Shown here in pieces: positions 1,615 through 17,212 of a stretch of DNA of 32,000 nt (positions are counted from its first letter, which is position 1; each line of letters begins with the position of its first letter). Source of the stretch: Promethearchaeum syntrophicum. Its GTDB lineage: Archaea > Asgardarchaeota > Lokiarchaeia > Sigyniarchaeales > Promethearchaeaceae. The position numbers were made by a program, and so were the translations under genes. The notes beneath the pieces are model-generated. The model did not search any database and had not been told where the DNA came from. It saw only the letters and a list, made by a program, of their open reading frames with translations. Location: positions 720,001 through 752,000 of the forward strand of contig NZ_CP042905.2 of NCBI RefSeq assembly GCF_008000775.2. The letters are read 5' to 3'.

Positions 1615-1630
1615 ATCAATCAGCTAAAAA

Positions 1631-3462: not shown

Positions 3463-4608
3463 ATGAGCAAAATCCCCGTAGTAGATGTTAACATAGGACA
3501 AAAAGAAATTGAAGAAGTAATCAAGGTTGTTAAAAGTAAATTTCTCATAGAAGGTGAAAATACGCACCAATTTGAGGCAAAATTTGCTAAATTCACTGGA
3601 GCTAAACATGCAATAACAGTAGTAAATGGGACCTCTGCTCTTCATTTGGCATTAACTGCCCTTGGAATAGGTCCTGGTGATGAAGTGATTACAACTCCTT
3701 TCACCTTTATTGCTTCCAGTAACGCTATTACTTTTAACGGTGCTATTCCAATATTTGTTGATATCGATATTCTTACATACAATATAGATCCGGAGAAAAT
3801 TAGAGAAGCTATTACCGATAAAACTAAAGCAATTATGCCAGTTCATATATTTGGAAATCCTTCTAATATGAAAGAAATAATGGAGATAGCCAATGAACAT
3901 AATCTTTATGTAATTGAAGATTGTGCTCAAGCTCATGATGCTCGAATATCTGGAAAGCATTTAGGAACATTTGGGACTCTTGGAGTATTCTCATTTTATG
4001 GAACTAAGAATTTAGTTGGTGGGGAAGGTGGGGCTATTATATCAAATGATGAAGGATTATACGAACGAATAAAAAGTCTTAAGAATCACGGGAGAAATCC
4101 AAAGGGTGGTTACAATCATTATCAGATTGGTTACAATTATCGTATTACAGATGTAATTGCTGCAATAATGAATGTTCAAATGGATCGCGCTCATGAAATT
4201 TTAGATCGGCGTCATAGAAATGGTGATTTATATCGAAAACTACTGAATGACCAAAATGGATTAAAAATTCAAAAGATTTTACCCAATCATAGTCATTCTG
4301 ATTATATTTTCGCCCCTGTAATTACTAAAAAAGAGATTACTCCTCAAAAAGTTATATCCTATCTTAAAGAAAAAAACATCGCATCGAGAACTATTTATTC
4401 CATTTTATCATACCAACAACCATGCTATCTTAACATTTTAGATTGGATTTTTGCAAAAACAGTAAAATATCCTGATTATTCTAAAGTATCATGCCCAAAT
4501 GCAGAATATGTTTCAACACATCATTTTGAATTACCAATGGTTTCAACATTATCCGATGAGAACATCTATTATATTGTAGATTCTTTAAAATCTTTTCTTT
4601 CGGAATAG
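3463..4608 (+). CDS. DegT/DnrJ/EryC1/StrS-family PLP-dependent sugar aminotransferase
   Basis: 381-aa ORF. FE.KFA.FTGAKHAITVVNGTSALHLAL, GDEVITTPFTFIAS, IMPVHIFGNP, YVIEDCAQAH and FSFYGTKNL (PLP lysine) are the canonical motif order of this family. Confidence 0.9.
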   Translation: MSKIPVVDVNIGQKEIEEVIKVVKSKFLIEGENTHQFEAKFAKFTGAKHAITVVNGTSALHLALTALGIGPGDEVITTPFTFIASSNAITFNGAIPIFVDIDILTYNIDPEKIREAITDKTKAIMPVHIFGNPSNMKEIMEIANEHNLYVIEDCAQAHDARISGKHLGTFGTLGVFSFYGTKNLVGGEGGAIISNDEGLYERIKSLKNHGRNPKGGYNHYQIGYNYRITDVIAAIMNVQMDRAHEILDRRHRNGDLYRKLLNDQNGLKIQKILPNHSHSDYIFAPVITKKEITPQKVISYLKEKNIASRTIYSILSYQQPCYLNILDWIFAKTVKYPDYSKVSCPNAEYVSTHHFELPMVSTLSDENIYYIVDSLKSFLSE

Positions 4609-4673
4609 ATTAACGGGTTAATTTTACGGATGATGGATTATTTTCGGGTATTTTCCTGTCTTTTACTTATCTA

Positions 4674-4681
4674 TTTTTTTT
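4674..4681. terminator. Oligo-T tract between convergent genes (possible archaeal-type terminator)
   Basis: T8 run in the 128-nt spacer between the 3' ends of 3463..4608 (+) and 4737..5156 (-), with further T4-T5 runs just upstream. Oligo-T is the usual archaeal termination signal, but T runs are common in this AT-rich DNA. Confidence 0.25.
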
Positions 4682-4736
4682 ATTATAGAATTTGAGCAAG
4701 TTTTGGGTTTTAAAGGATTTATTTTAGCAATTTCCT

Positions 4737-5156
4737 TTATATTAGGTTGATTTCGATTGAATCATCTAAATTTGCTTTTATATCCTCAATATACCTCAAA
4801 ATTTCATCTTGAGAATCAAATTTTCTGGGACCAATTATATCTTTATCATTTTTCATTTTGGAGAGATCTAAAGTCGTTTCATGGTCAGTAAAAGTAGTTA
4901 GAATTTGTCTTAAACGTTCATATTGGCTTTCTTCTAATTTAGATATTTCATATCGAATATCAATATCTTCAATTTTTTTCCATTGGATGAGTCCTTTAAT
5001 TGCTTCGGTTTCAGAAAATCGCAAATAGAAAATCTTTGAAAATTTATGATTCAAATACGAGCAAATATCATTAAACCAATGAATTACAAATTCCTCATTT
5101 TGCTCACGATCAGAATATGGAGATTTTCTAGGGTTTTTACTTATTAAATTATTCAC
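4737..5156 (-). CDS. Hypothetical protein (139 aa), no recognisable domain
   Basis: Clean ORF with a GTG start, acidic/helical composition, and no overlap with a better ORF. No motif recognised. Confidence 0.5.
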   Translation of the reverse strand: MNNLISKNPRKSPYSDREQNEEFVIHWFNDICSYLNHKFSKIFYLRFSETEAIKGLIQWKKIEDIDIRYEISKLEESQYERLRQILTTFTDHETTLDLSKMKNDKDIIGPRKFDSQDEILRYIEDIKANLDDSIEINLI

Positions 5157-5518
5157 TCGATGGGATCTTGTTATTCAATTAATTCATTTTTTTCAATAAA
5201 CAAATCAAAAAATTTTTCTGTTAGAAGATCAAGCTCAAATGGGCTATAAAATTGGGATTCAATTTTGTTTTTTCCCATTTCACAAACCAACTCAAGGATC
5301 TGACAATTTAAATTTAACTTTATTAATTTTTTTCTAAGATTCTGTATTTACAAGCATTCACAAAAAAAGGATTGAATGATCCTAAATAGAAGTGAGAGAA
5401 TTCTTTAAAATCTTTTTTTTCAGAATAGATTAACCGAACATTTTTAACAATAATTAATCTAACACAAAAAGTATGTTCAAAACATTTTTCTGAAAGTAAA
5501 CCCATTGATAAAAAAAGC

Positions 5519-5671
5519 CTAATCTTCATGAGCTACTTCGTAGGCACCAAGATTAGGGCTAATCACAATAATTCTCTCTTTAATCAAATCGTGGACAACA
5601 GCTTCAACTTTTTGGAGACCTGCTTTAGGTTCTTTTATCATTTTCAATATTTGTTTTGGATGTTCTAACAT
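5519..5671 (-). CDS. Possible small protein (50 aa), below the ORF-track cutoff
   Basis: Hand translation gives MLEHPKQILKMIKEPKAGLQKVEAVVHDLIKERIIVISPNLGAYEVAHED*, with an ATG start, TAG stop and non-low-complexity sequence. It overlaps the start of track ORF 5323..5529 by 11 nt. Confidence 0.25.
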   Translation of the reverse strand: MLEHPKQILKMIKEPKAGLQKVEAVVHDLIKERIIVISPNLGAYEVAHED

Positions 5672-5736
5672 TTTATTTTCGCCTCACACAAAAGTTTATG
5701 TGTAAATCTTATAGGAAAATGCTTGAATTTAAATCT

Positions 5737-5852
5737 ATTTTCACGTATTTTCACGTAGATTAATAAAAATATGTTAGATTAATTAAATAAAAGTTAGTTT
5801 AATTAAATAGATTAAAACTGAAAGTTTGTTCAAAGCATTTTACTGAAAGTTT
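5737..5852. repeat. Cluster of short direct repeats in the intergenic region upstream of 5937..6593
   Basis: The 10-mer ATTTTCACGT is in tandem at 5737-5746 and 5747-5756. The 17-mer GTTAG(A/T)TTAATTAAATA occurs at 5773-5789 and 5793-5809 (1 mismatch, 20-nt period). The 11-mer ACTGAAAGTTT occurs at 5817-5827 and 5842-5852. Confidence 0.6.
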
Positions 5853-5936
5853 AATCAAAATTTTAAACACTATTCCAGAGCTAAAATCTATTTTAGATTG
5901 CTAAAGCATTTAAGTTTCAAAATTATAGAAAATTTG

Positions 5937-6593
5937 ATGGCAAGAATCGAGGTCTATGTAATTGTGAAAGAGGAAGGGACATGCTTAACTAAATATGATT
6001 TTTTAGGGGATACTGAAGAAACAAAAGATCAACTTGTCAGTGGATTTTTAACAGCATTAAATTCATTTGCTAAAGAAATCGGATTCCCAAAAGGTGTTAG
6101 CTTAATTCGCTCAGGAAGTTTAGAAGCAAGGTTTAGTCCAGGGAAAAATGTTTTCACAGTATTGATAATCGACTATTTCTTACCTTTAGGATTAATGGCA
6201 GAGCCTATTCTTTCTTCATTAGCAAGAGAAATTACTGAAACTTTCGAAAAAAAATTTAAAAAACCCTTAAATCAAAGTAAAAAAGGAAATATCTATAAAA
6301 CTAGCGAATTTCACGGATTTAGAGGATATATTGACGATTTATTAGATAAATATGGTCGCGAATCTCTTGAATTGTACCAGAAATTAATATTAGTTGAATG
6401 CTTATATGATAATGTTCCAGAAGACATTATTATTCCTATACTTACGAAAGTTACTAAAAAACAAGATGTTCTAAGTGAATTTAAAAAAATCCCAAAAAAA
6501 TTTCAGAAAATCGTTAAAAATGCAATTAAAAAAATTAATTACAGGTATGCTCCACTTTGGCAAATTTTCGCAATTCCAACTCTTATTTTCTAA
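5937..6593 (+). CDS. Hypothetical protein with an N-terminal roadblock/longin-like (MglB-like) sequence pattern
   Basis: The track ORF starts at TTG 5898; the first ATG at 5937 gives MARIEVYVIVKEEGTCLTKYDF....QLVSGFLTALNSFAKEIG...LIRSGSLEARF..GKNVFTVLIID. This is a beta-strand, long helix (SGFLtAlnsF..E), beta-beta pattern typical of small-GTPase partner domains. The confidence value refers to the region being coding; the fold call is weaker (~0.3). Confidence 0.55.
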   Translation: MARIEVYVIVKEEGTCLTKYDFLGDTEETKDQLVSGFLTALNSFAKEIGFPKGVSLIRSGSLEARFSPGKNVFTVLIIDYFLPLGLMAEPILSSLAREITETFEKKFKKPLNQSKKGNIYKTSEFHGFRGYIDDLLDKYGRESLELYQKLILVECLYDNVPEDIIIPILTKVTKKQDVLSEFKKIPKKFQKIVKNAIKKINYRYAPLWQIFAIPTLIF

Positions 6594-6614
6594 TTTAGGA
6601 TAGAAGCTTTATCT

Positions 6615-7034
6615 TTATTCTTTTGGTTTTCTCACATACATAAGCATCGATTCAGCATACCCTGTAATGATTTCGTTTCCTTTTTGATTTGTAATAATCG
6701 TTTCAATTTTACATTTTTTATGGGAATCAATTTTAATTATTTTCAAATGAGCGATAACTGTGTCTCCGATATAAACAGGTTTTTTAAATTCTAAATTTTG
6801 CGAAAGCCATAAATTTCCAGCACCCATTAACTTGGTTAGACCTGCAGAGATTAAGGATGCTGCAATTAATCCATGTGCAATAGGTTTTTTAAAAAAAGTG
6901 CGTTTTGCAAACTCATTATCGTGATGGATTGGATTTCGATCCCCGCTTAAATTCATAAATGTTTCAATGTCTGCTTTTGTGATTGTTTTAGATACATCAC
7001 ATTCTTTACCTAACATTCCCTCCATGGAAATCAC
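6615..7034 (-). CDS. MaoC-like (R)-specific enoyl-CoA/ACP hydratase-dehydratase (hot-dog fold)
   Basis: 139-aa ORF. NLSGDRNPIHHDNEFA matches the hydratase-2 motif [ST]GD.NP[LIV]H.{5}[AS], followed by PIAHGL. The track start is GTG 7034; ATG 7025 (MEGMLGK...) is an alternative. Confidence 0.9.
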   Translation of the reverse strand: MISMEGMLGKECDVSKTITKADIETFMNLSGDRNPIHHDNEFAKRTFFKKPIAHGLIAASLISAGLTKLMGAGNLWLSQNLEFKKPVYIGDTVIAHLKIIKIDSHKKCKIETIITNQKGNEIITGYAESMLMYVRKPKE

Positions 7035-7723
7035 TTATTATGATTTTTTTTTTTTTTATTAAGTTGAATTTCCTTTGCTTTCATCATCTTATCTAACCAT
7101 TTTCTTTTCATAACACATTTTGCGGGATTTCCTCTCCAAACTTCTTCAGCAGGAACATCTTTATCAATCAATGAGCCAGCAGAAATCACAGAATTTTTAC
7201 CAATTGTCACACCTGGAAAAATAGAACAGTTTCCTCCAACTTTACAACCATCTTCAAAGATTGGGCCTTCCATCGGAATATCCACCATCCCCATGTATCT
7301 ATCATTCATAGTACAAACATCTGGACCAATAAAGCAATCTTCTCCAATTATAACATCTGCTGTAATTAAAGCACGAGTTTGGATTATGCTGCCTTTACGA
7401 ATAATTGTATTGCATTCAACAATAGCGTTACGACCAATCATAACTTCATCTTCAATGGTACAACCTTCTCGAATTGATGCCCCATCTCCAATAAATACTC
7501 GTTTTCCGATTTTGGAACCTGCATAAATTATCGCATTAGAACAAATAATTGTTCCTTCCCCGATTTCAGTTTTGGGATATTCTTTTTCTTTGCCAGCGAA
7601 TATCGAATTAATTCCAAATATGGGTTGTTTATTGAAAACAACGTTTGGTTGCACAATAATGGATGGTTTTTCTTCAGACATATTTAAAAAAAGATGGCGG
7701 TATAAAAAAAGATTCACTAACAA
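7031..7723 (-). CDS. Left-handed beta-helix (hexapeptide-repeat) acyl/acetyltransferase, sugar N-acyltransferase type
   Basis: Consecutive [LIV]G..... hexapeptide turns (IGEGTIICSNAIIYAGSKIGKRVFIGDGASIREGCTIEDEVMIGRNAIV...IGKNSVISAGSLI) end in VWRGNPAK. The likely true start is ATG 7681 (MSEEKPSII...). The stop overlaps the MaoC start region. Confidence 0.85.
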   Translation of the reverse strand: MLVNLFLYRHLFLNMSEEKPSIIVQPNVVFNKQPIFGINSIFAGKEKEYPKTEIGEGTIICSNAIIYAGSKIGKRVFIGDGASIREGCTIEDEVMIGRNAIVECNTIIRKGSIIQTRALITADVIIGEDCFIGPDVCTMNDRYMGMVDIPMEGPIFEDGCKVGGNCSIFPGVTIGKNSVISAGSLIDKDVPAEEVWRGNPAKCVMKRKWLDKMMKAKEIQLNKKKKNHNK

Positions 7724-7769: not shown

Positions 7770-8882
7770 ATGAGTTTACAAGGAAAAAAAATTTGGATAG
7801 ATGTTGAAGAGCCAAAGACGGGTATTATGTTTAAATCTCTCTTTCGAAAATTTAAGGAAGCAGGAGCAGAGTTGTTAATCACAGCACGTAATTTTGATTC
7901 AACACATAAAATAATGGATGATATAGGAATTAAATATTTAAAAGTAGGAAAACATGGAGGGGCTGATATTCAACAGAAACTTAAAACCTATATTGAACGC
8001 CTTGCGGAGCTTTTTCCAATAATAACTAAAGAAAAACCTGATTTTTTAGTAACTTTTGGTTCTGTAGAAGGTACACGGATTGCATATGGATTACAAATTC
8101 CATCTATTGGTTTTAGTGACGAACCGAGAAGTGTTCACGTATCAAAGTTATATTTTCCTTATATTGAAATGTTGATTACCCCAGATTGTATTCCAATCGA
8201 ACAATATAATGATCTTCATGCAACTAATAATAGGATCATCAGATATAATGGGATTGATGAAGTTGCTTGGTTGCGACATTATCAACCAAACCCTGACTTA
8301 TTGAAAAAATTCCATGTTGAACCCGGTAAATTCGTGTTAATGAGAAGTGAACCTACTTTTGCTTGTTATTTTGTAGATAAACTAAAACCTGAAGAAACTT
8401 TTATTGCAAAATACTTTCCAAAAATATTTGAATCTTGTCCAGATCAAACTTATTTTTTGCTAGTTCGCTCTGAAGGTCAAGAAAAATGGTTAAAGGAACA
8501 GTTGAAGGATTATCTTCCTAGTGAGAAAATTCAAATCACCCGTTATTTGCCAAATATTGTTGATTTATGTTTTTATGCATCTCTTGTTGTTAGTGGAGGA
8601 GGAACAATTGTTAGAGAGTCTGCAATGTTAGATGTTCCAAGTATTGAATATTTTCCGGGTGATTCCGCACCTCAAGAAAAATGGTTAATAAAGAATGGAT
8701 TTCCTATAGAACACATCCGTGAAAAAGAAAAAATCATATCCAGATGCATTGAAATAATTCAACGAGGGCCTACTAAAGATCGATTTACAGAATCATATAA
8801 GAACGCTATCTTAAAATTTGAAGATCCAAATCAAATCTGTTATAATTACGTTGTAGATAAACTCAATAGAGCGGAAAAATAG
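7770..8882 (+). CDS. DUF354-family protein (archaeal, GT-B / epimerase-like fold; function unknown)
   Basis: 370-aa ORF. The N-terminus KIWIDVEEPKTGIMFKSLFRKFKEAGAELLITARNFDSTHKIMDDIGIKYLKVGKHGG matches the DUF354 opening I remember (KIWIDi.hPahvhfFk.li.eL.k.GheVliTaRd.d.t..LL...g..y..iG). A GGGT-containing C-terminal half (VVSGGGTIVRESAML) is like GT-B nucleotide-sugar enzymes. Confidence 0.6.
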   Translation: MSLQGKKIWIDVEEPKTGIMFKSLFRKFKEAGAELLITARNFDSTHKIMDDIGIKYLKVGKHGGADIQQKLKTYIERLAELFPIITKEKPDFLVTFGSVEGTRIAYGLQIPSIGFSDEPRSVHVSKLYFPYIEMLITPDCIPIEQYNDLHATNNRIIRYNGIDEVAWLRHYQPNPDLLKKFHVEPGKFVLMRSEPTFACYFVDKLKPEETFIAKYFPKIFESCPDQTYFLLVRSEGQEKWLKEQLKDYLPSEKIQITRYLPNIVDLCFYASLVVSGGGTIVRESAMLDVPSIEYFPGDSAPQEKWLIKNGFPIEHIREKEKIISRCIEIIQRGPTKDRFTESYKNAILKFEDPNQICYNYVVDKLNRAEK

Positions 8883-8903: not shown

Positions 8904-9716
8904 GTGATAAATTTGACTATAATATTTCATCTTGAAGAGCCAATTAAGAGAATTAACTTATTTAATTCTGTTTTTCAATATTTTTCTTTAAATTTGAATG
9001 GAATTAAAATCATTTTAGGCGAATTTGCTAAAGAAAATCAGATAAAAAATGAAAAACAATTTTTGGAAAAGGAGGATTTCTGGAATAAGAGTGAGAAAAA
9101 AGAAATTAAAAATTTTTTAGAAAAAGATCAGATTTCACGTCTTCAAGAATGGGTTCTAGCAAGATCTATGATTAAATATGGTATAGGTTATATGTTTAAA
9201 GATCAAATTAAAATTCCTTTTAACAACATCACAATTGAATCAGATAAAAGAAATAAACCCAAATTAAAAATTAAATCAAAAAATATTGAGAATAAAATTA
9301 AAAAGGAATGTGAAGAAATTGTAATTTCTATATCTCATTCTAATAAAATGATATATGTAGCTCTTACTTCAAATCAAATTGGAATTGATTGTGAGGATAT
9401 ACATTTATTCTCAGAAAAATTCAGAGAAAAATTTGTTAAAAATGATGAGTTCAATCAATTAAAATCAACAATGAATATCCAAATTTCTAATTCGCGAGAC
9501 ATATTCGATACAATAATTTGGTGTATTAAAGAATCAACTTTGAAAATAATCAGGGATGCTAAATTAGCAAATATTTCTCAGGTCAAAATAGAAATTAGGG
9601 ATCAAAAAATTATTTCATCTTATCCATCAATAAATTATGAATTTGTTAATTTCATTAACATAAAAAATGATTCAATATTAGTTTTAACATTTATAGAAAA
9701 TAAGGTGGCAATTTGA
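8904..9716 (+). CDS. Sfp-type 4'-phosphopantetheinyl transferase
   Basis: 270-aa ORF with a GTG start. The PPTase motifs occur in order: RNKPKL (GKP), ISISHSNKMIYVAL (FN.SHS), IGIDCEDI (G.D.E) and WCIKESTLKI (W..KE...K). Confidence 0.75.
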   Translation: MINLTIIFHLEEPIKRINLFNSVFQYFSLNLNGIKIILGEFAKENQIKNEKQFLEKEDFWNKSEKKEIKNFLEKDQISRLQEWVLARSMIKYGIGYMFKDQIKIPFNNITIESDKRNKPKLKIKSKNIENKIKKECEEIVISISHSNKMIYVALTSNQIGIDCEDIHLFSEKFREKFVKNDEFNQLKSTMNIQISNSRDIFDTIIWCIKESTLKIIRDAKLANISQVKIEIRDQKIISSYPSINYEFVNFINIKNDSILVLTFIENKVAI

Positions 9717-10663
9717 TCCTCAAATCTCATTCAATTAAATTGAATAACGGAAATACTCTTTCGATAACAGAATACTTCACTAATGAGCCAAAAATTGAAG
9801 ATGAAATTGTTTTATTTTTAAATTCTTCCTTTTTTAATCAAGATCAATGGAGAAACGTTTTAAAATTGCTTCAATCGTTGAATTCTTCAAATAAATCCTT
9901 TAGATATTTTACATATGATTATGCTGGGATAGGAAAAAGTAATTATTCTGCAGAAAACATAAGTATTAATCAATTTATGATGGAAATTAATGCAATTGTA
10001 AATTGGCTAGGAAAGGATAAAATTCACATTTTCGGAACAAGCCTTGGTGCTTGGATTGGGCTTAATCTATGTGTTTCTAATCCAAAGATTATAAAATCTT
10101 TTGTTGGATATGGAAATTTAGCACCATATTTACCAAATTTTAAAGAACTTCGCTTGAAGAGGTTTAAATCAATAAAAACGTCATTTTCTTATATCGAATC
10201 TTTCATGGATAATTCTATTGAAAAATCAAATTGGGATGTTTTATTCCATCATTTTTACGTTCCAGTTTTCTTTCAACATTTGTTTGATTCAATTGGAAAT
10301 TCTAAATCTGTTGAAAATACAAAAAAAATATTATCAAAACTCCTATTTCCTATGGTTAAAGGAAATAAAATAGCTTTTATCCCCAAATATTATGAATATA
10401 TCATTGATACTATGATAAAAGAAGGACAATCATTATATTCACAACTTTCGAAAATTCCTAAAGATATACCGATTCTTTTTATGAATGGAAAGAAAGACTT
10501 AATTGCAGTGCCGAGTATGAGTGAAGATCTTCATAATAAAATACTTCACTCCAAATTAGTTCTTTTTGAAGATTTAGGGCATGGAAGTATCCTTCTTGGA
10601 AAAGGAAATAAAAAAATAATGGAAAAGTACATCCAATTTATTATTTACCATAATATAGAGTAA
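9713..10663 (+). CDS. Alpha/beta-fold hydrolase (candidate thioesterase/esterase of the locus)
   Basis: 316-aa ORF. Nucleophile elbow HIFGTSLGAWIG (G.S.G), a late Asp (KKDLIAV) and His (LGHGS) lie in the expected order. The TTG start overlaps the PPTase stop (TTGA). Confidence 0.7.
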   Translation: MILKSHSIKLNNGNTLSITEYFTNEPKIEDEIVLFLNSSFFNQDQWRNVLKLLQSLNSSNKSFRYFTYDYAGIGKSNYSAENISINQFMMEINAIVNWLGKDKIHIFGTSLGAWIGLNLCVSNPKIIKSFVGYGNLAPYLPNFKELRLKRFKSIKTSFSYIESFMDNSIEKSNWDVLFHHFYVPVFFQHLFDSIGNSKSVENTKKILSKLLFPMVKGNKIAFIPKYYEYIIDTMIKEGQSLYSQLSKIPKDIPILFMNGKKDLIAVPSMSEDLHNKILHSKLVLFEDLGHGSILLGKGNKKIMEKYIQFIIYHNIE

Positions 10664-11930
10664 CCCAATTTACAAGCCTTGACATGAATAGCATTCCATC
10701 CCAAGGTGAATCAAATAAGTGCATTTGCCCTAAATTAACACATCGTGAAACACCTCGAAAAGTAACTTCGTCAGCAAATTCTTCCAGCTTATTCTTATCG
10801 TCAATTGCGCATCCTATTGTTTGGATCTTTCGAGTGATTAAAGGAATTACCGCCATAATTGAATCTACTTCTTTTACAAATATTGTACGAGATTCAATTG
10901 GCTCTTCCAATTGGATTTGATCATTTGCCAATATTGTCCAATCGTTTTCAGTAGGACATATCACTTTTTTATCAAGATCTAATGCATATTGAGCACGTAT
11001 ATTGATTATTTTGGAAGTAATAAATTGATCAATATCTATTTTGGGAAATTGTTTTATTGCTCTATTAAATGCTTCTACAAGATCCTTAGTTATTTCCTCA
11101 ATATTTTTTAATCCTTTTTCAAAAAATACAACATGTGGAGAAGTACAAGCAGCTTGATCAAATAAAAAGATATCACTAACTAAAAAACGAAGATATCGAG
11201 TAAAATTTTTTGAAATTACTGCATCTTTATCAAATACAGCAAAGGAATACTTCGGACCAAAAATTATATCTTCACAATGAGCTTTTTTCGGTAATCCCGT
11301 AATGGATTTTACTGCAGAATCTCCCCCCCATACAATTCTAACGTCCGCAATTTCAGATAATTCAATATTTGCTTTAATATTAGATTTATTATAATAAATT
11401 ATGCCAACTGAAGTAAGTAGATTAGCTCCGCTTAATCCCGAATCAATAGTTGTTTCTGCAAAAACTTTTAAAAGAGCAACTATAGTTTTATGACTTTTTG
11501 GAGGTATTCTAAGAATGTTTGCATTTCCAACAAATATTGATTGAAAAAGCGAAAAAAGACCTAATGTTGGAACATTTCCAGCAATCCAATGACAAGCAAT
11601 TCCTCGAGGTTGTGCTTTAATCCGTTTTTTATCTCCTATAAAATTTTCTAAATAATCCAAATCTTTAAAGGACTTTTCAACAATTTGGATAAAATTGTTT
11701 CTTTTCAACCAACTGGATAAGAAAGCAATACCTTCAATTTTATTTACTTCGGTAGATTTGATCAAATTTTTACTGTATTCATGAAAAATATCCAAAATCT
11801 CATTTTTAGATATTTTTTTCAATAATTTAATACCTTCGTAAATGGATGGCAATAATGGAGATAATTTTTCTACTCGTTTGTATTCTGGAAAGTAGAATTT
11901 TCCATTAAAAATCGCTAAGTCTATCATCAT
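10641..11930 (-). CDS. LuxC-like acyl-CoA/acyl-ACP reductase (aldehyde-forming)
   Basis: 429-aa ORF. PRGIACHWIAGNVPTLGLFSLFQSIFVGNANILRIP and the catalytic-Cys context FLFDQAACTSPHVVF are the LuxC-family hallmarks. It has a 4-nt overlap with the upstream LuxE-like gene. Confidence 0.8.
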   Translation of the reverse strand: MMIDLAIFNGKFYFPEYKRVEKLSPLLPSIYEGIKLLKKISKNEILDIFHEYSKNLIKSTEVNKIEGIAFLSSWLKRNNFIQIVEKSFKDLDYLENFIGDKKRIKAQPRGIACHWIAGNVPTLGLFSLFQSIFVGNANILRIPPKSHKTIVALLKVFAETTIDSGLSGANLLTSVGIIYYNKSNIKANIELSEIADVRIVWGGDSAVKSITGLPKKAHCEDIIFGPKYSFAVFDKDAVISKNFTRYLRFLVSDIFLFDQAACTSPHVVFFEKGLKNIEEITKDLVEAFNRAIKQFPKIDIDQFITSKIINIRAQYALDLDKKVICPTENDWTILANDQIQLEEPIESRTIFVKEVDSIMAVIPLITRKIQTIGCAIDDKNKLEEFADEVTFRGVSRCVNLGQMHLFDSPWDGMLFMSRLVNWVTLYYGK

Positions 11931-13048
11931 TTATCTCCTCTTTTTTCGGCGAAAGTATCTCCACAACCTCGAGTTTCAGATTTTTCCACTCGGGAGCGAA
12001 ATTCAAAATATTTTCCTTTTCTTCCACAAGGACAATCATCAATTCCGATAATTTCACCGATATCTTCTGTTATAATAGCTTGACCGGGATAACTACTAGG
12101 GATTATATTAATAATTTCGATTAAACCAGGATCTCCGATTTGTTTTTCTTTCATAGAATAAATATCTCGAATAATAATATCCGCAAAATCCGGAACATGT
12201 TTGTGACCTGCTTCACAGTCTAGAAAAACAACACCCAATTGTTCCACCATACCATAAAAATCAATTATGTTTTCTGGTTTGGTTCCAAAGGTATCTGCAA
12301 CAGTCTCAGAAAAATATTGTTTTGTAACTGAATCTGCTTGTAATTTCTTCCATCCTCCGCTATGAACAAGTTTCATATTCGGAAAACTTAATTTTTTATT
12401 GACTTTTTTCATTTGATTAATAAAACGACTCCAAATTATATATGTAAAACCTGAAACAATTATCTCTTGATCTGCAAATTCTTCACAAAATGCGTTTAAC
12501 AATTTAAAATTTATAAATAATTCTCCGTCTTTTTCATCCATTACATAAACTTTTTTCCTACCAAAATTCCCTGCAATCCCTCTGATAGCAGCACCCCGAG
12601 CTGTCAAAGTTGTTGCACTTGCTTTATTTACATTTTCCGTATCTAAAATTAATGCTGGTCGACGACTTCCACCTAAGAAGTTTTTTAAAGTAGAGATTAA
12701 TGCTCGTGTTTGTCTAAACGATGTTTCTTTATTTATATAGATTTTACTCGGAATGCTATTTGTAGTTCCACTTGAGTGAAGAGTTCTTATTATTTTTTCA
12801 TCAGCACATGTTTTTAACTCAAAATTTTTAAACATTGATACCGGAATTGATGGAATCTCAGAAACGGATTCATAATCATCTGGATTTTTTCCCATAGTTA
12901 AATAAAATTTTTTTAAATTGGGTGAAAATTCCATATTATTTATGATCTGGGCTTTTAAGATAGGAAGTAGCAATTTATCTTTACTTGATTGAAGTAACTT
13001 GAATTGATCTTGAACAATTAGATCCTTTATTCTTGCTTTAATATCCAT
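11927..13048 (-). CDS. LuxE-like acyl-protein synthetase (adenylate-forming)
   Basis: 373-aa ORF. LHSSGTTNSIPSKIYI (SSGTTG..S motif), HSGGWKK and the C-terminal CPCGRKGKYFEFRSRVEKSETRGCGDT are typical of the LuxE / PaaK-like family. Confidence 0.8.
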   Translation of the reverse strand: MDIKARIKDLIVQDQFKLLQSSKDKLLLPILKAQIINNMEFSPNLKKFYLTMGKNPDDYESVSEIPSIPVSMFKNFELKTCADEKIIRTLHSSGTTNSIPSKIYINKETSFRQTRALISTLKNFLGGSRRPALILDTENVNKASATTLTARGAAIRGIAGNFGRKKVYVMDEKDGELFINFKLLNAFCEEFADQEIIVSGFTYIIWSRFINQMKKVNKKLSFPNMKLVHSGGWKKLQADSVTKQYFSETVADTFGTKPENIIDFYGMVEQLGVVFLDCEAGHKHVPDFADIIIRDIYSMKEKQIGDPGLIEIINIIPSSYPGQAIITEDIGEIIGIDDCPCGRKGKYFEFRSRVEKSETRGCGDTFAEKRGDK

Positions 13049-14109
13049 TCTATCAATCCTAGTAATTTTTCTTTTTTAAACCGAATTGGGGAGGTGGATA
13101 TCGAAGGATCTTGAAGTGCCGTTTCTGCCCATTTTTCTTTATTTAATGCTTTTAATACTGATGGATCACTATATTGCTGAAATCCAATACTATCGAATAA
13201 TTCAAGATATTGTTTGTAAATTGGTTTATCAGTTTCCTTATAATACCATAAAAGGATTGGCTTAATGAGTAGTAAAATGGATGCTGCATGGGATATTGAT
13301 ATTTGATGTTCCATAGTATGAGCTAAAGCATGACAAACACCTACATACGCATTTCCTTGAACTTTCCCTGCAAGATAACCAGCATATTGGATATCAGCAT
13401 AAGCTTTAGGATCATCATTTTTTTCTTTCAATTTATCAAAACCACTTTTCAGAAGGTTTAAACTGCTTTCTCCTATGCTTTTCAGCAAAGGGGTGTTCAT
13501 CATTGAAACAGATCCTTCAAATGCATGGGAAAAAATATCTGCACCGAATTCATATAATGATTTAATTGGCAAAGAACTTAAGAAATTCGGATCTAAGATA
13601 GCTAAATCTGGAATAAAACCATGATTTAGATATGGATGTTTATGACCTTCTTTATCATATATTACTGCCACTGCTGTAGATTCAGATCCGGTACCTGGAG
13701 TCGTTGGAATTGCAACTAATTTAACTGAATTTAAATCAAGGAACTGTTGATCATGAAAATCATCAAAATTTATTTCGGGATAAGATAAAAAAACGCGTAA
13801 TATTTTTGCTGGATCAATAACGGACCCTCCTCCAATAGCAACAATTACTTCTGGTTTATTTGAAAGATATTTATCTCGTAATTTCAAAATTTCATCTTGA
13901 TTTAAGAATTGTACAATTTCAGTTTGAACTGATTTTTCTTGTGTATATTTTTCAATTTTAGAATAATAATCTGAATTTTTAATAGGTTCTGCTATAAGTA
14001 CCAAAAATTTTGAATAATCAATACTTTTAAGGCAAGCAATTGCTCCTTTTTTATAGTAAACTTCTGGGGTGTTCCATAAACGTTTTACCATTAACTTCTT
14101 CTTTATCAT
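13027..14109 (-). CDS. Iron-containing (group III) alcohol dehydrogenase
   Basis: 360-aa ORF. VIVAIGGGSVIDPAKI (GGGS NAD motif), VAIPTTPGTGSE and the metal-His region GVCHALAHTMEH. Confidence 0.85.
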   Translation of the reverse strand: MIKKKLMVKRLWNTPEVYYKKGAIACLKSIDYSKFLVLIAEPIKNSDYYSKIEKYTQEKSVQTEIVQFLNQDEILKLRDKYLSNKPEVIVAIGGGSVIDPAKILRVFLSYPEINFDDFHDQQFLDLNSVKLVAIPTTPGTGSESTAVAVIYDKEGHKHPYLNHGFIPDLAILDPNFLSSLPIKSLYEFGADIFSHAFEGSVSMMNTPLLKSIGESSLNLLKSGFDKLKEKNDDPKAYADIQYAGYLAGKVQGNAYVGVCHALAHTMEHQISISHAASILLLIKPILLWYYKETDKPIYKQYLELFDSIGFQQYSDPSVLKALNKEKWAETALQDPSISTSPIRFKKEKLLGLIEWILKQE

Positions 14110-14110
14110 T

Positions 14111-15622
14111 TTAATTACCTTTTTTTTCTTTATGCATTTGTTTTAATTTAACTCTATCGAGTTTATTAGAATTATTCTTGGGTAATGAATTTAAAAATTC
14201 ATATTCTTTTGGAATTTTATGATTTGGAAAATGATTTTTACAATATGAAATAATCATCTTTTCTGTAAGTTTTGAATTTTCAACAAGTGAGATATATGCC
14301 TTCATTGCTTCTCCCAAAATATCATCAGATATTCCTATAATGCCGACTTCAACTACATCATCTAATTGTGTGATATAATCTTCCACTTCTTTAGGACTAA
14401 CTCGAAAGCCTCCAATCTTTAGAATATTTTTCTCGCGATCAGTTAAGAAGATGTATCCTTCTTCATCAACTGTTCCAATATCGCCAGTATAGAGTTTTCC
14501 ATTTTTAAAGGTTTTTACAGTTGTTTCTGGATCTTTCCAATATCCTAATGTAATATTATCTCCCGAAGCTACCAATTCCCCAGTTTCTCCATATTTGATT
14601 GGTTTTCCTTCTTTATTAAGTACTTCTAGAATAGTATTAGGGATTCCCTTTCCGATTGAACCCAACTTTGTATCTAAAAGATTGGGGGGAAGATATGATA
14701 GACGAGCCGTCGCTTCAGTCTGACCATACATGATGAAAATTTGAGTATTTGGTAAGATTTCTCGTAATTCCGATATGAAAGTATTAGCTAATTTTCCTCC
14801 AGCTTGCTGAATTAATCGTAAAGTGGGAAAAGTCATCTTCTTAAAAGGGGATCTTCTAAGTAAAATTTGATATGTGCTTGGCACACCTGCAAATACTGTG
14901 CATTTTTTTTCATTAATTTCTTTTAATACTTTCCCAGGAAACATGAATCTATTATTTAAAACAATCTGACCTCCAACTCTTAAATGAGTGTGAAGTAAAG
15001 ACGTTCCAAAACAATATGAAAAGGGAAGAACAACCATAACGCGATCATTTTGATTTAATTGAAGGTATTCTATAATCGAATTAGAGTTATGAATTATATT
15101 TAAATGAGATTGCATAACACCTTTCGGTATCCCTGTAGAACCTGAAGTAAAAATAATTACAGCTAATTTTGCTTTTTCATTTATAGGTTTAATTATTCCC
15201 TTTTCATTTTTTAGATCAAAAACGGTAATAGCATCTTCTAAATTATCATCTGTAAAAAGAATTTTTGTTGAAATTCCATATTTTTCAAATTTTTTTACAT
15301 ATTTCTTTTGTATGAAAAAACAAGAAACATTGCATGAATCTATAACATATTTAAAATTTTGCTCACCGAACTGATTATGCAAAGGAACTGCAACTCTTCC
15401 GCTTGCAATTATACCAAAATAAGCAGCAATAAAAAAAAGAGAATTATCTGAAACAATCATAATTTTCTCATCAAGACTTAATTGAAAATCATCTAATTTC
15501 TTACTAATTTTTAAAATAAGAGAATATAATTCAGAAAACGAATATTTTTCATCTCCTTGAAAAATTGCATATTTATTATTTAAATTCTTTGAATTTTCAA
15601 AGATATATTGTGTCAGATTCAT
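14111..15622 (-). CDS. AMP-dependent synthetase/ligase (acyl-ACP/CoA ligase)
   Basis: 503-aa ORF with adenylation core motifs IIFTSGSTGIPKGV, YGQTEA, YTGDIG, DREKNILKIGGFRVSPKEVE and a C-terminal NSNKLDR. Confidence 0.95.
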   Translation of the reverse strand: MNLTQYIFENSKNLNNKYAIFQGDEKYSFSELYSLILKISKKLDDFQLSLDEKIMIVSDNSLFFIAAYFGIIASGRVAVPLHNQFGEQNFKYVIDSCNVSCFFIQKKYVKKFEKYGISTKILFTDDNLEDAITVFDLKNEKGIIKPINEKAKLAVIIFTSGSTGIPKGVMQSHLNIIHNSNSIIEYLQLNQNDRVMVVLPFSYCFGTSLLHTHLRVGGQIVLNNRFMFPGKVLKEINEKKCTVFAGVPSTYQILLRRSPFKKMTFPTLRLIQQAGGKLANTFISELREILPNTQIFIMYGQTEATARLSYLPPNLLDTKLGSIGKGIPNTILEVLNKEGKPIKYGETGELVASGDNITLGYWKDPETTVKTFKNGKLYTGDIGTVDEEGYIFLTDREKNILKIGGFRVSPKEVEDYITQLDDVVEVGIIGISDDILGEAMKAYISLVENSKLTEKMIISYCKNHFPNHKIPKEYEFLNSLPKNNSNKLDRVKLKQMHKEKKGN

Positions 15623-15625
15623 TCT

Positions 15626-15865
15626 TCAAACTTCAATACCATGATTTTTTAAGGTTTCTTTAATTGCACCAATTGAATCCATTTCTGTTATTTCTTCAAC
15701 ATCCAATTCTAAACCAAATTTTTCTTCAAATCTTGCCATTAAATCCATGTGTGAGATTGATGTCCAACTTTCTATGTCATCAGGTGTTGCATCATCGGTT
15801 ATTTCTTCACTTTTAATGTTAAATACTTCTAATAACATATTAATTAGCTGTTCAGATTGATTCAT
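15626..15865 (-). CDS. Acyl carrier protein (polysaccharide-locus 'W-[DT]-S' type)
   Basis: 79-aa acidic ORF. IESWTSISHMDLMARFEEKFGLEL aligns with the ACP helix-2 region DSLDTVELVMALEEEF, placing the phosphopantetheine Ser at the TS position. It sits 3 nt upstream of the ligase gene. Confidence 0.8.
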   Translation of the reverse strand: MNQSEQLINMLLEVFNIKSEEITDDATPDDIESWTSISHMDLMARFEEKFGLELDVEEITEMDSIGAIKETLKNHGIEV

Positions 15866-15883
15866 ACTTTATAATACCATTCT

Positions 15884-17212
15884 TTAATTTTTAATTTTCT
15901 CTTTTATTTTTCTAATAGATCTATTAAAATATATAATAGTTATTCCGTACCAAATAATTAAAACTATAATACCTAGTATCCCACTATAAAGCCAGTTCAA
16001 TGGTTGCTTTACAATGAAAATATCAAGAATATAAACTAAAATTAGTCCAATAATCATTAATACTGTCATAATAATCGTAATTCCAAAGATCCTTGGATAT
16101 TTTTTAATAATGATGTAATATAAAACACCACCTATTGCGAAAACCGAAAAACTTAAGGCGTAATTTGGAACTTCTATTGGTAATATCCATTGAATTGCGA
16201 TTATTGCATAAATTCCAGAGATACCAGATAAAGCCATAATATTATTAACCAAATCCTTTTCCTTCAGTTTTCCATTAGCTAAAATTAAACGCGGTAATGT
16301 TAACGATGAACCATGTTCAAGCGAAGCATGGATAAAATCTTCATCATCTATGAAAATATCTTTTATTTTAACTGAATGACTTTCTTTAAATCCATGTTCT
16401 GATGCTATAACATAAAAGCTATTGAAAATATGGGGTAGCATAACTAATATCATTGCAACTTCTAAAGATCCCAATATACCAAGCATTGCAATTGCTGCAC
16501 CAATCGTTAAGGTTCCAACATCTCCTGGAAAAACTTTAGCGGGGAATCTATTAAAGAAATAAAACGCTAACCCTGCACCTAAAATAATCGCCCCAAATAA
16601 AACCCCTTCACTCGATTTTATCATAATTGCAGCAATAATCATAAAAAATGTCGCTATACTGGTAGTACCTGATCCTTCACCGTTGTAACCTTCAAGCATA
16701 TTAACTGTATTGGTAAGAATTAAAACAATGAACGGTAAGACAAAAGGATAGATAAGATTGAGTCTAAGTTGCCCTAAAATAGGTAATACTGGGCTGTTTA
16801 CACTGATCCACCCAATAATTGGAAGGTTAAAGATAAAAACGGGTAAACCTGAGATAATTAATAAAATTATTTTCTTTTTAGGAGAAAATTGTTTTCGATC
16901 GTCAATAAATCCAATCACTCCCGCAAAAATTATTGTTATTATGAACACTATCACCTCCATCCATAATTCGGAATAGAAAATTCCAATTATAATAGATCCT
17001 ATAATTAATGCAATTGCAATTCCAATCCCGCCCGACTCAGGTGTCGCCGTTCGAGATTTTTTATGGATATCATATCCGATCCATCCCTTTTTTTTAATCC
17101 ATTTTATCAAGGGAGGATATAAAAAATACGCAAATAAGAAGACAATTAAGCCTATGGAAAATATGATTATTCCATCAATCCAAGTTAAATTAAGGTCAGA
17201 GAATGTAAACAA
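15884..17212 (-). CDS. GT4-family polyprenyl/dolichyl-phosphate HexNAc-1-phosphate transferase (MraY/WecA/AglH-like), polytopic membrane protein
   Basis: 442-aa hydrophobic ORF with about 10 or more TM segments. Motifs are GFIDDRKQFSPKKK, NTVNMLEGYNGEGSG (N..DG.NGL) and VFPGDVGTLTIGAAIA. It has a TTG start and is the first gene of the ACP operon. Confidence 0.85.
   Translation of the reverse strand: MFTFSDLNLTWIDGIIIFSIGLIVFLFAYFLYPPLIKWIKKKGWIGYDIHKKSRTATPESGGIGIAIALIIGSIIIGIFYSELWMEVIVFIITIIFAGVIGFIDDRKQFSPKKKIILLIISGLPVFIFNLPIIGWISVNSPVLPILGQLRLNLIYPFVLPFIVLILTNTVNMLEGYNGEGSGTTSIATFFMIIAAIMIKSSEGVLFGAIILGAGLAFYFFNRFPAKVFPGDVGTLTIGAAIAMLGILGSLEVAMILVMLPHIFNSFYVIASEHGFKESHSVKIKDIFIDDEDFIHASLEHGSSLTLPRLILANGKLKEKDLVNNIMALSGISGIYAIIAIQWILPIEVPNYALSFSVFAIGGVLYYIIIKKYPRIFGITIIMTVLMIIGLILVYILDIFIVKQPLNWLYSGILGIIVLIIWYGITIIYFNRSIRKIKEKIKN

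Follow-up and report, generated by a model that had tools for sequence, protein, structure and literature searches.

Introduction

In Vibrio cholerae O1, wbeL (VC0249, 471 aa) is required for the O1 antigen, and mutations in wbeM and wbeN, both of which are also needed for the antigen, lead to resistance to O1-dependent phages. Tetronate was reported in the V. cholerae literature to be made from malate. WbeL is an AMP-forming ligase, WbeM an iron-type alcohol dehydrogenase (Fe-ADH) and WbeN a fusion of LuxE- and LuxC-type proteins; WbeK (RfbK) is presumably an acyl carrier protein (ACP) and WbeO (RfbO) presumably an acetyltransferase, as judged from a cassette of Cerasicoccus arenae used below as a proxy. 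Here we describe a counterpart of this system in the archaeon Promethearchaeum syntrophicum MK-D1. It lies at positions 3463-17212 of a 32,000-nucleotide stretch of contig NZ_CP042905.2 (positions 720,001 to 752,000), which as a whole is called the window below. We classify the locus as an archaeal form of the WbeKLMNO-type and glycosylation-island cassettes known from bacteria. In our judgement it probably encodes a self-sufficient carrier-protein pathway, which places a short hydroxylated acyl group on an amino sugar and feeds this sugar into N-glycan assembly.

Other described systems share parts of this plan. Campylobacter makes the linking sugar of its N-glycan, di-N-acetylbacillosamine, with PglF, PglE, PglD and PglC. 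Acyl-ACP-dependent N-acylation of UDP-GlcNAc3N by left-handed beta-helix (LbH) enzymes is carried out by GnnA/GnnB together with LpxA/LpxD, and in butirosin 4-amino-2-hydroxybutyrate is borne on an ACP through BtrI/BtrH. A cassette with the order ACP-FabG-ligase-LuxE-LuxC is known from flagellin glycosylation islands of Aeromonas group II and Enterobacteriaceae, where its genes were read as 'fatty acid synthesis'. In the Lux family, LuxE adenylates a free acid and moves it to its own C-terminal cysteine, from which it is passed to the LuxC cysteine for reduction (PMC9157457).

Results

Layout of the locus

The window has a G+C content of about 30%. The leading gene of a minus-strand operon codes for GT4, a polyprenol/dolichol-phosphate HexNAc-1-P (N-acetylhexosamine-1-phosphate) transferase of the Alg7/AglH/DPAGT1-MraY family (15884-17212; Glycos_transf_4, 99.9 bits). 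It is followed on the same strand by a 79-aa ACP (15626-15865; PP-binding, 30.8 bits), an adenylate-forming ligase (14111-15622; AMP-binding, 233.6 bits, plus AMP-binding_C), an Fe-ADH (13027-14109; Fe-ADH, 102 bits, plus ADH_Fe_C), a LuxE-type acyl-protein synthetase (11927-13048; Pfam LuxE, 188.4 bits) and a LuxC-type thioester reductase (10641-11930; Pfam LuxC, 250.9 bits). By open reading frame (ORF) coordinates, the five junctions are +18, +3, +1, -22 and -4 nt, the last of which is an ATGA start/stop overlap visible in the sequence. The LuxC protein is 100% identical to the nr entry 'Acyl-CoA reductase (LuxC)' of Candidatus Prometheoarchaeum syntrophicum, which begins one residue after the ORF start. 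A TATAAATA box read from the sequence at 17256-17263 (minus strand), 44-51 nt upstream of the TTG start of GT4, is a candidate archaeal promoter of the operon.

The 3' end of the LuxC gene converges, with a 23-nt overlap, on that of an alpha/beta hydrolase gene (9713-10663, plus; Abhydrolase_1, 53.9 bits). This is the last gene of a plus-strand run that begins with a DUF354 protein of GT-B fold (7770-8882; Pfam DUF354, 140.9 bits) and continues with an Sfp-type phosphopantetheinyl transferase (PPTase; 8904-9716; ACPS, 31.5 bits, cutoff 25), with a gap of +21 nt and then an overlap of -4 nt. On the minus strand, an LbH acyltransferase (ORF 7031-7723, probable ATG at 7681; Hexapep, 89.5 bits) overlaps by 4 nt with a MaoC-type (R)-hydratase/dehydratase (6615-7034; MaoC_dehydratas, 78.5 bits). 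A DegT/PseC/LegC-type, pyridoxal-phosphate-dependent sugar aminotransferase is encoded at 3463-4608 (plus; DegT_DnrJ_EryC1, 391.2 bits).

The extents and strands of these gene runs and the junctions of the minus-strand operon had been listed in an earlier reading made from the letters alone (the sequence-only reading), and an ORF recount of the window reproduced all of them; the LbH start that it gave at 7681 is the probable ATG inside the longer ORF. All Pfam calls of the locus lay above gathering thresholds. The profiles by which that reading could be checked (PP-binding, ACPS, AMP-binding, LuxE, LuxC, Fe-ADH, DegT, Glycos_transf_4, DUF354 and MaoC) all matched, including those for LuxC, LuxE and the ACP (250.9, 188.4 and 30.8 bits), whose failure it had named as grounds for refutation.

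Enzymes of the carrier-protein core

Ser36 is the predicted phosphopantetheine attachment site of the ACP. It stands in a motif, W34-x-S36-x-x-H39, that was conserved to at least 95% in 60 module ACPs, so that the W-x-S signature noted earlier as typical of carrier proteins in polysaccharide loci is borne out here.

The ligase is predicted to put a non-amino carboxylic acid on the ACP. In amino-acid-activating enzymes of the NRPS and DltA type, an aspartate of motif A4 binds the alpha-amino group. This aspartate was absent in 69 homologues of the ligase, in which the A4-equivalent motif reads LPF[S/Y/F]YC[Y/F]G; the motif was placed by position. Oxalate-, malonate- and succinylbenzoate-CoA ligases were among the closest solved relatives, with thin margins, the best NCBIfam matches were families named fatty-acid-CoA ligases, and the amino-acid adenylation domain model was matched below threshold (198 bits, cutoff 317).

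LuxE is predicted to activate a free carboxylate with ATP and to hold the acyl group on Cys362; its motifs RGC362GDTF and SSGTT were conserved to at least 95% in 63 homologues. LuxC is predicted to be a thioester reductase that yields an aldehyde with Cys262 as the catalytic residue, which was invariant among the homologues compared, and Fe-ADH is predicted to reduce the aldehyde to an alcohol. Scores against the NCBIfam bioluminescence equivalogs were far below the cutoffs (109 against 750 for LuxC, 72.9 against 550 for LuxE), indicating that both are members of the families but not the fatty-acid reductase of luminous bacteria. Pfam scans detected no LuxD acyl-transferase or LuxAB luciferase domain in any ORF of the window, and no ketosynthase or malonyl transferase in the locus, which therefore does not classify as a type II fatty-acid or polyketide synthase.

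The PPTase is assigned to the Sfp type (group II) and is predicted to be dedicated to the ACP. Its length of 270 aa lies in the Sfp-type range (about 230-270 aa), and the motifs G160-x-D162-x-E164 and W206..E210..K214, which correspond to the G-x-D-x-E and W/F-x-x-K-E-x-x-x-K signatures of this type, were conserved in 12 homologues; its N-terminal half matched AASDHPPT_N weakly (21.3, cutoff 27). In MaoC, the catalytic pair D32/H37 is conserved. For the alpha/beta hydrolase we infer a role as editing thioesterase or acyl transferase for the ACP; its orthologue (score 343) adjoins LuxC and the PPTase in Lokiarchaeum ossiferum.

Natural fusions connect the core enzymes. Fe-ADH::LuxE fusions were found in two other Asgard lineages (L007, L008), LuxE::LuxC fusions in Nanohaloarchaea and many bacteria, and ligase::LuxE fusions of about 860-935 aa in the protein database, in Glaciecola and others. 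These fusions support a common pathway for the four enzymes. The presence of two carboxyl-activating enzymes with a single carrier suggests a substrate with two carboxyl groups. The sequence-only reading had these enzymes build an acyl group on the ACP; the domains are intact, as are the catalytic residues, and the chemistry itself is read from the families.

Two further fusion proteins were observed in the databases. A 954-aa metallo-beta-lactamase::LuxE::LuxC protein occurs in Lentihominibacter and others, and one cluster of a 758-aa LuxE::LuxC protein has 1,596 near-identical members from metagenomes, probably of the gut.

Comparison with described systems

V. cholerae VC0248-VC0252 were represented by a cassette of Cerasicoccus arenae (L088), chosen by published gene sizes. 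It encodes, in this order, an ACP of 76 aa, a ligase of 470 aa, an Fe-ADH of 374 aa, a LuxE::LuxC protein of 829 aa and a hexapeptide transferase of 186 aa, the sizes corresponding to those published for V. cholerae WbeL, WbeM and WbeN, and is flanked by genes for a PglD-like LbH protein, a DegT protein, a UDP-sugar dehydrogenase and two phosphoglycosyl transferases. The order ACP-ligase-FeADH-LuxE-LuxC is the same in the window. Each core protein of the window matched its Cerasicoccus counterpart: the ACP with 25% identity (E 2e-11), the ligase with 25% (E 9e-57), Fe-ADH, whose counterpart is WbeM-sized, with 27% (E 2e-28), LuxE with 36% (E 2e-63) and LuxC with 34% (E 1e-70). Thus the parallel with the V. 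cholerae rfbKLMNO genes drawn by the sequence-only reading held for parts, order and homology by way of this proxy, the comparison with V. cholerae itself being one of gene size only. Two more bacterial cassettes of the fused type also lay in glycan loci, one with a PglD-like LbH protein and Polysacc_synt_2, the other with NeuB, so that all three examined were in such loci.

Like V. cholerae O1 wbeK-L-M-N-O, the MK-D1 locus has an ACP, an AMP-ligase, an Fe-ADH, LuxE and LuxC, a hexapeptide acyltransferase and a sugar aminotransferase; its five core genes are adjacent on one strand, and the acyltransferase and aminotransferase genes are both kept in the L. ossiferum locus. A route from malate to a 2,4-dihydroxybutanoyl amide on an amino sugar would fit the enzyme set of the window, and the reported origin of tetronate from malate fits a locus with two adenylating enzymes. 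The differences are that LuxE and LuxC are fused in WbeN but separate in the window, that identities to the bacterial cassette, judged by the Cerasicoccus proxy, are only 25-36%, and that MaoC, a dedicated Sfp-type PPTase and the alpha/beta hydrolase are additions of the Asgard locus. The end product also differs, as the V. cholerae cassette serves a GDP-perosamine O-antigen whereas the sugar here is probably an amino sugar derived from UDP-HexNAc on a dolichol N-glycan route. A search of the accessible literature found no paper that links such chemistry to archaea, in agreement with the earlier remark that no described archaeal glycan pathway using it was known to that reading.

The flagellin islands resemble the locus in having the four-gene core within loci for glycan modification, and their FabG-type short-chain dehydrogenase/reductase (SDR) recurs in the non-Asgard archaea described below. 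They differ from Asgard loci in using the SDR in place of Fe-ADH and MaoC, and they decorate nonulosonic-acid O-glycans on flagellin. Aeromonas piscicola AH-3, which carries the cassette, was reported to have a pseudaminic-acid derivative of 376.14 Da and an unassigned moiety of 102 Da (PMC7874193). Exchange of one acetyl group of Pse5Ac7Ac for dihydroxybutanoyl gives 376.148, and C4H6O3 is 102.032; by arithmetic only, it is suggestive that these masses are dihydroxybutanoyl products.

As in the Campylobacter Pgl system, a DegT aminotransferase and an LbH N-acyltransferase would make a diamino sugar that a phosphoglycosyl transferase installs first. The donor is acetyl-CoA in Campylobacter and is predicted to be an acyl-ACP here; the transferase is of the PglC type there and of the Alg7/WecA type here; and the window has no PglF-like dehydratase, nor does its LbH protein have a PglD_N domain. 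With GnnA/GnnB-LpxA/LpxD and with butirosin the locus would share the movement of an ACP-borne acyl group to the amine of an amino sugar, whereas the enzyme families that build the acyl group, the acyl groups and the glycoconjugates differ. LuxCDE of luminous bacteria has the same LuxE and LuxC families and catalytic cysteines. The window lacks LuxD and LuxAB, has an extra ligase, ACP, alcohol dehydrogenase and sugar enzymes, and its substrate is probably a short dicarboxylate, not a fatty acid.

Sugar-side genes

GT4 is assigned by sequence as an Alg7/AglH/DPAGT1-type initiator of N-glycan assembly, because it aligned from the N-terminus with human DPAGT1 (residues 1-290, E 1e-12, equal to MraY) and is 45% identical to a GT4 encoded beside ribophorin I and Sec61-beta in another Asgard genome (L087). 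The initiating role proposed earlier for this enzyme was therefore supported by family and by the DPAGT1 match, but GT4 and DUF354 turned out to be general Asgard N-glycosylation genes, not specific to the module.

DUF354 was at least 56% identical across 120 Asgard homologues and had no sequence-level relative in the PDB. Its AlphaFold2 model (pLDDT 91.3) had as top Foldseek match in the PDB a UDP-2,3-diacetamido-2,3-dideoxy-glucuronate 2-epimerase (8sxw, E 7e-15), followed by WecB/MnaA. By this model DUF354 resembles nucleotide-sugar 2-epimerases in fold, with TM scores of 0.65-0.70 but identities of only 12-18%, and the Pfam family is DUF354, not Epimerase_2. This likeness parallels the WecB genes found beside the module in methanogens and DPANN archaea. 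A role as glycosyltransferase is a possible alternative. A literature search on DUF354 matched only unrelated DUF354x names.

In other Asgards, DUF354 adjoins GT4, ribophorin I, Sec61-beta and a GT1 enzyme; in Lokiarchaeales the position of the acyl module is now between GT4 and DUF354 or next to them. In Hodarchaeota and another member of Promethearchaeota, a single neighbourhood running from GT4 to GT1 (L086 3012-10297, L087 2956-10229) contains a long Alg7-like GT4, Trm112, ribophorin I (Ost1), Sec61-beta, MazG, DUF354 and GT1, and looks like a compact N-glycosylation/translocon cluster. Ost1 was reported absent from MK-D1 in the glycoproteome paper.

The LbH protein is predicted to be an N-acyl transferase that moves the acyl group from ACP to the sugar amine. 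Its best NCBIfam match was the NeuD/PglB/VioB sugar acetyltransferase family, under cutoff, and its PDB relatives included QdtC, WlbB, PerB, VioB and also DapD. DegT is predicted to generate the sugar amine; its best NCBIfam matches were the LegC family (279.9 bits) and PseC (265.4 bits), both under cutoffs.

Distribution of the module

The module is not special to MK-D1; it is widespread in Asgards, and was also found in methanogens and DPANN archaea. LuxC homologues with 50-90% identity were present in Lokiarchaeia and in Sigyn-, Hermod-, Hel-, Hod-, Thor- and Sif-archaeal assemblies. Scanning one genome per species gave 80 loci, from Asgards, Methanoregula and other Methanomicrobiales, Methanomassiliicoccaceae, several DPANN lineages, many Clostridium species and scattered other bacteria, and the ACP-ligase-LuxE-LuxC core was complete wherever the contig permitted. 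Because the same gene set occurs in L. ossiferum and the core in these 80 loci of other genomes, the arrangement is not due to chance.

Clades were compared with loci of at least 12 kb, namely 9 Asgard, 13 other archaeal and 48 bacterial loci, the last mostly of Clostridium; genes in the fetched loci were called by a simple longest-ORF procedure, so that the co-occurrence counts are approximate. Asgard loci had the module-type Fe-ADH, MaoC (7/9), an LbH gene (5/9), an adjacent Sfp-type PPTase (7/9) and a sugar or glycan gene within 9 kb of the core (6/9). In another count MaoC was present in 8 of 11 Asgard loci, and in Lokiarchaeum, Hel- and Thorarchaeota its gene directly precedes that of the ACP. 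Loci of other archaea had a FabG-type SDR (11/13), which passed the FabG equivalog cutoff, an LbH gene (10/13), an adjacent AcpS-type PPTase (12/13) and a sugar gene (11/13), with GT1, 4,6-dehydratase, WecB and split transketolase as further partners. The bacterial loci were characterised by a sigma54 activator (40/48) and a HpaB/AbfD-family gene (34/48); an adjacent PPTase was found in none (0/48) and a sugar gene in 6/48.

Taken over all archaea, a PPTase adjoined the core in 19 of 22 loci, against 0 of 48 in bacteria, which marks a dedicated PPTase as an archaeal trait. ACP and ACP synthase were reported to be missing from nearly all archaea, and a dedicated PPTase fits this. The description of the locus as 'self-contained' was supported by the same counts. 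Sugar or glycan genes within 9 kb were found in 17/22 archaeal and 6/48 bacterial loci, and an LbH gene was near the core in 15/22 archaeal loci. The enzymes for the sugar amine differed by lineage: DegT in Lokiarchaeales and Nanohaloarchaea, PIG-L deacetylases in L007 and Thor. One Thor locus (L012) had PseB-like and PseC-like genes beside the module, and in a nanohaloarchaeal locus (L059) DegT-ACP-ligase-LuxE::LuxC-SDR-LbH-AcpS formed a single run, with a GT4 gene nearby.

The Clostridium loci (L005, L015-L058) had a different layout, with a PAS/sigma54 activator, the core, and then NifU-like, AF_0334-like and HpaB/AbfD-family genes. In C. aestuarii the core was further followed by two CoA-transferases, an Asp-Al_Ex transporter, an aldehyde dehydrogenase and an Fe-ADH. 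The resemblance of this context to succinate/4-hydroxybutyrate metabolism hints at a C4-dicarboxylate as the substrate of the core.

Evolution of the module

A neighbour-joining tree was made from concatenated ligase, LuxE and LuxC sequences (46 taxa, 1273 columns, 100 bootstraps, midpoint root). Asgards without Heimdall were monophyletic in 88/100 bootstraps, and with Heimdall in 53/100. Clostridium and the methanogens each formed one group in 100/100, while a sister pairing of Asgards and Clostridium appeared in only 1/100. The order within Asgards (Loki, Hermod and Sigyn together, then Thor, Hel and Heimdall) resembled the organismal tree. Since Asgards grouped together, apart from Clostridium, and in an organism-like order, the Asgard module is apparently old and mainly vertically inherited. 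A recent bacterial transfer into MK-D1, for which the sequence-only reading had proposed a phylogenetic test, was ruled out by the grouping of Asgards and by the near absence of the Clostridium pairing in this tree.

MK-D1 and L. ossiferum have the same 15-gene set in different orders and orientations: GT4, DUF354, LbH, MaoC, ACP, ligase, Fe-ADH, LuxE, LuxC, the hydrolase, PPTase, a 231-aa protein and DegT, together with genes for an HMG-CoA-synthase-like (HMGS-like) and a mevalonate-decarboxylase-like (MVD-like) protein. That these genes have stayed together despite the rearrangement suggests selection on proximity. The DegT orthologue in the L. ossiferum locus scored 596. The conserved 231-aa protein (5898-6593, plus in the window) had no Pfam match; its L. 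ossiferum homologue (score 241; L006 13079-13822) lies between the PPTase and a hydrolase.

The 304.127 Da linking sugar of MK-D1

Glycoproteomics of MK-D1 reported three N-glycans, of 801.30, 909.30 and 1212.40 Da; the first residue of all three is a linking sugar, 304.127 Da in mass, that was left unidentified. The tentative reading given in that study was HexNAc plus threonine or methyl-HexNAc plus serine (theoretical 304.127051), and a NovoGlyco re-analysis in 2026 found the same residue and called it 'likely' a Ser- or Thr-modified HexNAc (bioRxiv 10.64898/2026.04.15.718822). The original paper made no mention of acyl groups, carrier proteins, aminotransferases or AglH, and the locus was considered in neither of the two papers.

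The formula of the linking sugar is C12H20N2O7. A diamino-dideoxy-hexose (160.0848) with an acetyl group (42.0106) and a dihydroxybutanoyl group (102.0317) gives 304.1271 Da and C12H20N2O7, so that the predicted N-acetyl, N'-(dihydroxybutanoyl) diamino-hexose agrees with the linking sugar as a match of formula only. The remainder beyond HexNAc, C4H7NO2, is what DegT and a malate-derived, tetronate-like acyl group would add, again by formula only. Linking sugars are installed by the initiating transferase, and in MK-D1 the gene for this enzyme shares an operon with the ACP gene (18 nt apart). We therefore propose, tentatively and with rather less than even confidence, that the locus makes the 304.127 Da linking sugar as a HexNAc-derived diamino sugar, the second nitrogen of which carries a dihydroxybutanoyl or isomeric polyhydroxy-C4 acyl group built on the ACP, through a module that is vertically inherited in most Asgards.

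The original study mapped the glycans to N-X-S/T sequons. In the re-analysis, only a +18 satellite and not the +17/-84 satellites of N-linked HexNAc was observed, and the glycans were called O-linked (bioRxiv 10.64898/2026.04.15.718822); an atypical linking sugar could explain the odd fragmentation. An assignment of the residues of 303.10 and 311.08 Da was also attempted and was dropped, because two decimals fit too many formulas.

Other genes of the window

On one side of the locus, an MVD-like gene and a gene for a 573-aa HMGS-like protein (1631-3352) occupy 418-3352 on the minus strand. The HMGS-like protein is extended at its C-terminus by about 140 aa, which include a Cys-rich, zinc-ribbon-like stretch. 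L. ossiferum has this gene pair too, and there it runs on into genes for HMG-CoA reductase, a GHMP kinase and an amino-acid-kinase-family protein, which indicates that a mevalonate operon abuts the locus in both genomes. The HMGS-like gene thus belongs with the mevalonate genes, not with the ACP. Between DegT and the 231-aa protein, 1.3 kb with a G+C content of about 0.27 (4609-5897) contains only an orphan ORF of 139 aa (4737-5156, minus).

On the other side, 20161-21564 (plus) encodes a Ras/Roc-family small GTPase of 317 aa with a low-complexity C-terminal extension of about 140 aa and, 12 nt after it, a PIN_9-domain protein. The 723-aa protein encoded at 21721-23892 (minus) has nine TSP3 (thrombospondin type 3) repeats of the bacterial kind, and its gene lies in the one region of the window where the G+C content is raised (0.37-0.40 against about 0.30). 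The window further encodes a 621-aa protein with CoiA-like nuclease domains (25985-27850, minus) and a 361-aa protein with seven LVIVD repeats (28449-29534, plus). The ORFs at 24010-24363, 24444-25901 and 30517-31209 matched no family. Rfam and tRNA scans of the window gave no matches, and permissive Pfam scans of its orphan ORFs gave noise only.

Discussion

The results can be arranged into a pathway of seven steps. First, the Sfp-type PPTase would turn apo-ACP into holo-ACP at Ser36; the locus would bring its own PPTase because most archaea lack a housekeeping ACP synthase. Second, the AMP-ligase would adenylate a small non-amino dicarboxylic acid, for which malate, fumarate or another C4 acid is the likeliest candidate, and link one carboxyl to the ACP. 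Third, LuxE would adenylate the free second carboxyl, hold it on Cys362 and pass it to Cys262 of LuxC for reduction to the aldehyde with NAD(P)H, a chemistry which is established for the Lux family. Fourth, Fe-ADH would reduce the aldehyde to the alcohol, giving an omega-hydroxyacyl-ACP, which from malate would be dihydroxybutanoyl-ACP. Fifth, and most speculatively, MaoC may add or remove water on an enoyl-ACP, for example from fumaryl to malyl. Sixth, DegT would make an amino-deoxy HexNAc nucleotide sugar (in other lineages PIG-L would free the amine), and the LbH enzyme would move the acyl group from ACP to the sugar amine. Seventh, the epimerase-like DUF354 protein may tailor the nucleotide sugar, and the Alg7-type GT4 would pass the sugar-1-phosphate to dolichol phosphate as the linking sugar of the N-glycan. 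The product would be a HexNAc with an extra N-(dihydroxybutanoyl) amino group, C12H20N2O7, 304.1271 Da.

Several observations weigh against this pathway or against its link to the 304.127 Da sugar. No member of a cassette of this type, bacterial or archaeal, has been biochemically characterised, so that the acid, its acceptor and the sequence of reactions are all deduced. On the sugar side, DegT is nearest to C4 aminotransferases of 6-deoxy pathways, and with dihydroxybutanoyl a 6-deoxy sugar would have a mass of 288.13 Da instead of 304.13. No sugar 4,6-dehydratase or C3/C4 oxidoreductase that would supply the keto-sugar for DegT is encoded in the window; genes of the former kind are present in related Asgard loci, PseB-like in L012 and 4,6-dehydratase-like in L009 and L010. 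The earlier view that the locus makes an amino sugar is backed by the DegT family and by the likeness of LbH to sugar N-acyltransferases, and it is weakened by the missing supplier. The top solved relative of LbH, by a slim margin, is a DapD-type amino-acid N-acetyltransferase. The formula C12H20N2O7 is shared by other structures: HexNAc plus Thr, methyl-HexNAc plus Ser, a homoseryl or threonyl ester on HexNAc, a HexN acylated by an N-acetyl-C4 amino-hydroxy acid, and a 2,4-diamino-2,4,6-trideoxyhexose with acetyl and trihydroxybutanoyl groups, the last of which would suit a PseC/LegC-like DegT. As for gene context, GT4 and DUF354 are neighbours in Asgards that have no acyl module at that site, so their adjacency to the module in MK-D1 could be historical and not functional. 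The Helarchaeota loci had no recognisable sugar gene within 10 kb. The Clostridium core, which is the closest non-Asgard one by identity, is accompanied by a sigma54 activator and a HpaB/AbfD-family gene and not by sugar genes; such regulated, non-sugar contexts indicate that the four-gene core is not intrinsically a sugar module. The sequence-only reading had held that it would fail if the nearest homologues lay consistently in lipid or secondary-metabolite contexts without sugar-modifying genes; the core was in a non-sugar context in 42 of the 48 bacterial loci, and sugar genes accompanied it in 17 of the 22 archaeal ones.

These points about context would be accommodated if the glycosylation genes and the acyl module were neighbours without a common function. 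The core would then serve to reduce a carboxylic acid in some other setting, whether to make a small alcohol or aldehyde, to supply a cofactor precursor or as part of catabolism, and the substrate of LbH, which does match DapD-type enzymes, would be something other than a sugar. The bacterial non-sugar contexts with sigma54 activators and HpaB/AbfD-family genes, the C. aestuarii core beside CoA-transferases, aldehyde dehydrogenase and Fe-ADH, the Helarchaeota loci and the GT4-DUF354 pairs without module are all in favour of this. We nevertheless regard it as unlikely, because LbH, PPTase and sugar-amine enzymes recur with the core in unrelated archaeal lineages, all three bacterial cassettes of the fused type that were examined lie in glycan loci, the GT4 and ACP genes of MK-D1 share a strand and are separated by 18 nt, and the gene set has stayed together through the rearrangement between MK-D1 and L. 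ossiferum.

A Dlt-like aminoacyl-carrier system, in which Asp (or Thr) would be loaded on the ACP, the aspartyl group converted to homoseryl by LuxE, LuxC and Fe-ADH, and the product esterified to HexNAc, would account for the linking sugar as well, since the homoseryl and threonyl esters of HexNAc have its formula. The conversion of aspartate to homoserine needs precisely a distal carboxyl reduced to an alcohol, and the ligase did show a sub-threshold match to the amino-acid adenylation domain. However, the A4-equivalent aspartate was absent in all 69 module ligases, DegT and PIG-L would be left without a role, and aminoacyl esters on sugars are labile, whereas an amide-linked hydroxyacyl group has a precedent in V. 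cholerae O1. This explanation seems to us somewhat less probable than that of unrelated neighbours.

A LuxCDE-like fatty-acid reductase for lipids (ether or wax-type alcohols or aldehydes), for which the mevalonate adjacency would be meaningful, was rejected as highly improbable: fatty-acid reduction is the best-known activity of the LuxC and LuxE families, the ligase is nearest to fatty-acid-CoA ligases in NCBIfam, and HMG-CoA-synthase-like and mevalonate-decarboxylase-like genes flank the locus in MK-D1 and L. ossiferum, but the equivalog scores are far too low, genes for LuxD, luciferase, ketosynthase or other chain-building enzymes are missing from the locus, two adenylating enzymes would be superfluous, and the mevalonate adjacency is limited to two Lokiarchaeales genomes whereas sugar genes are recurrent partners elsewhere.

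On the reading that we prefer, a carrier-protein pathway that acylates an amino sugar for the N-glycan, the step from a dicarboxylate, with one carboxyl on the ACP and the other reduced, provides a single hypothesis for the V. cholerae O1, flagellin-island and archaeal cassettes, and both the natural fusions and the archaeal variants speak for it. From the locus a specific structure can also be proposed for the linking sugar of MK-D1, the first Asgard archaeon brought into culture. If this is true, it would be the first known carrier-protein-dependent step in archaeal N-glycosylation, and methanogens and DPANN archaea would share it in variant form. The pairing of an ACP with a dedicated PPTase is widespread in Asgards, methanogens and DPANN archaea, probably as a glycan-decoration module, which is of relevance to those who read archaeal ACP and PPTase genes as evidence on the 'lipid divide': the ACP and PPTase genes of Asgards would then report glycan chemistry, not fatty-acid synthesis of the bacterial type.

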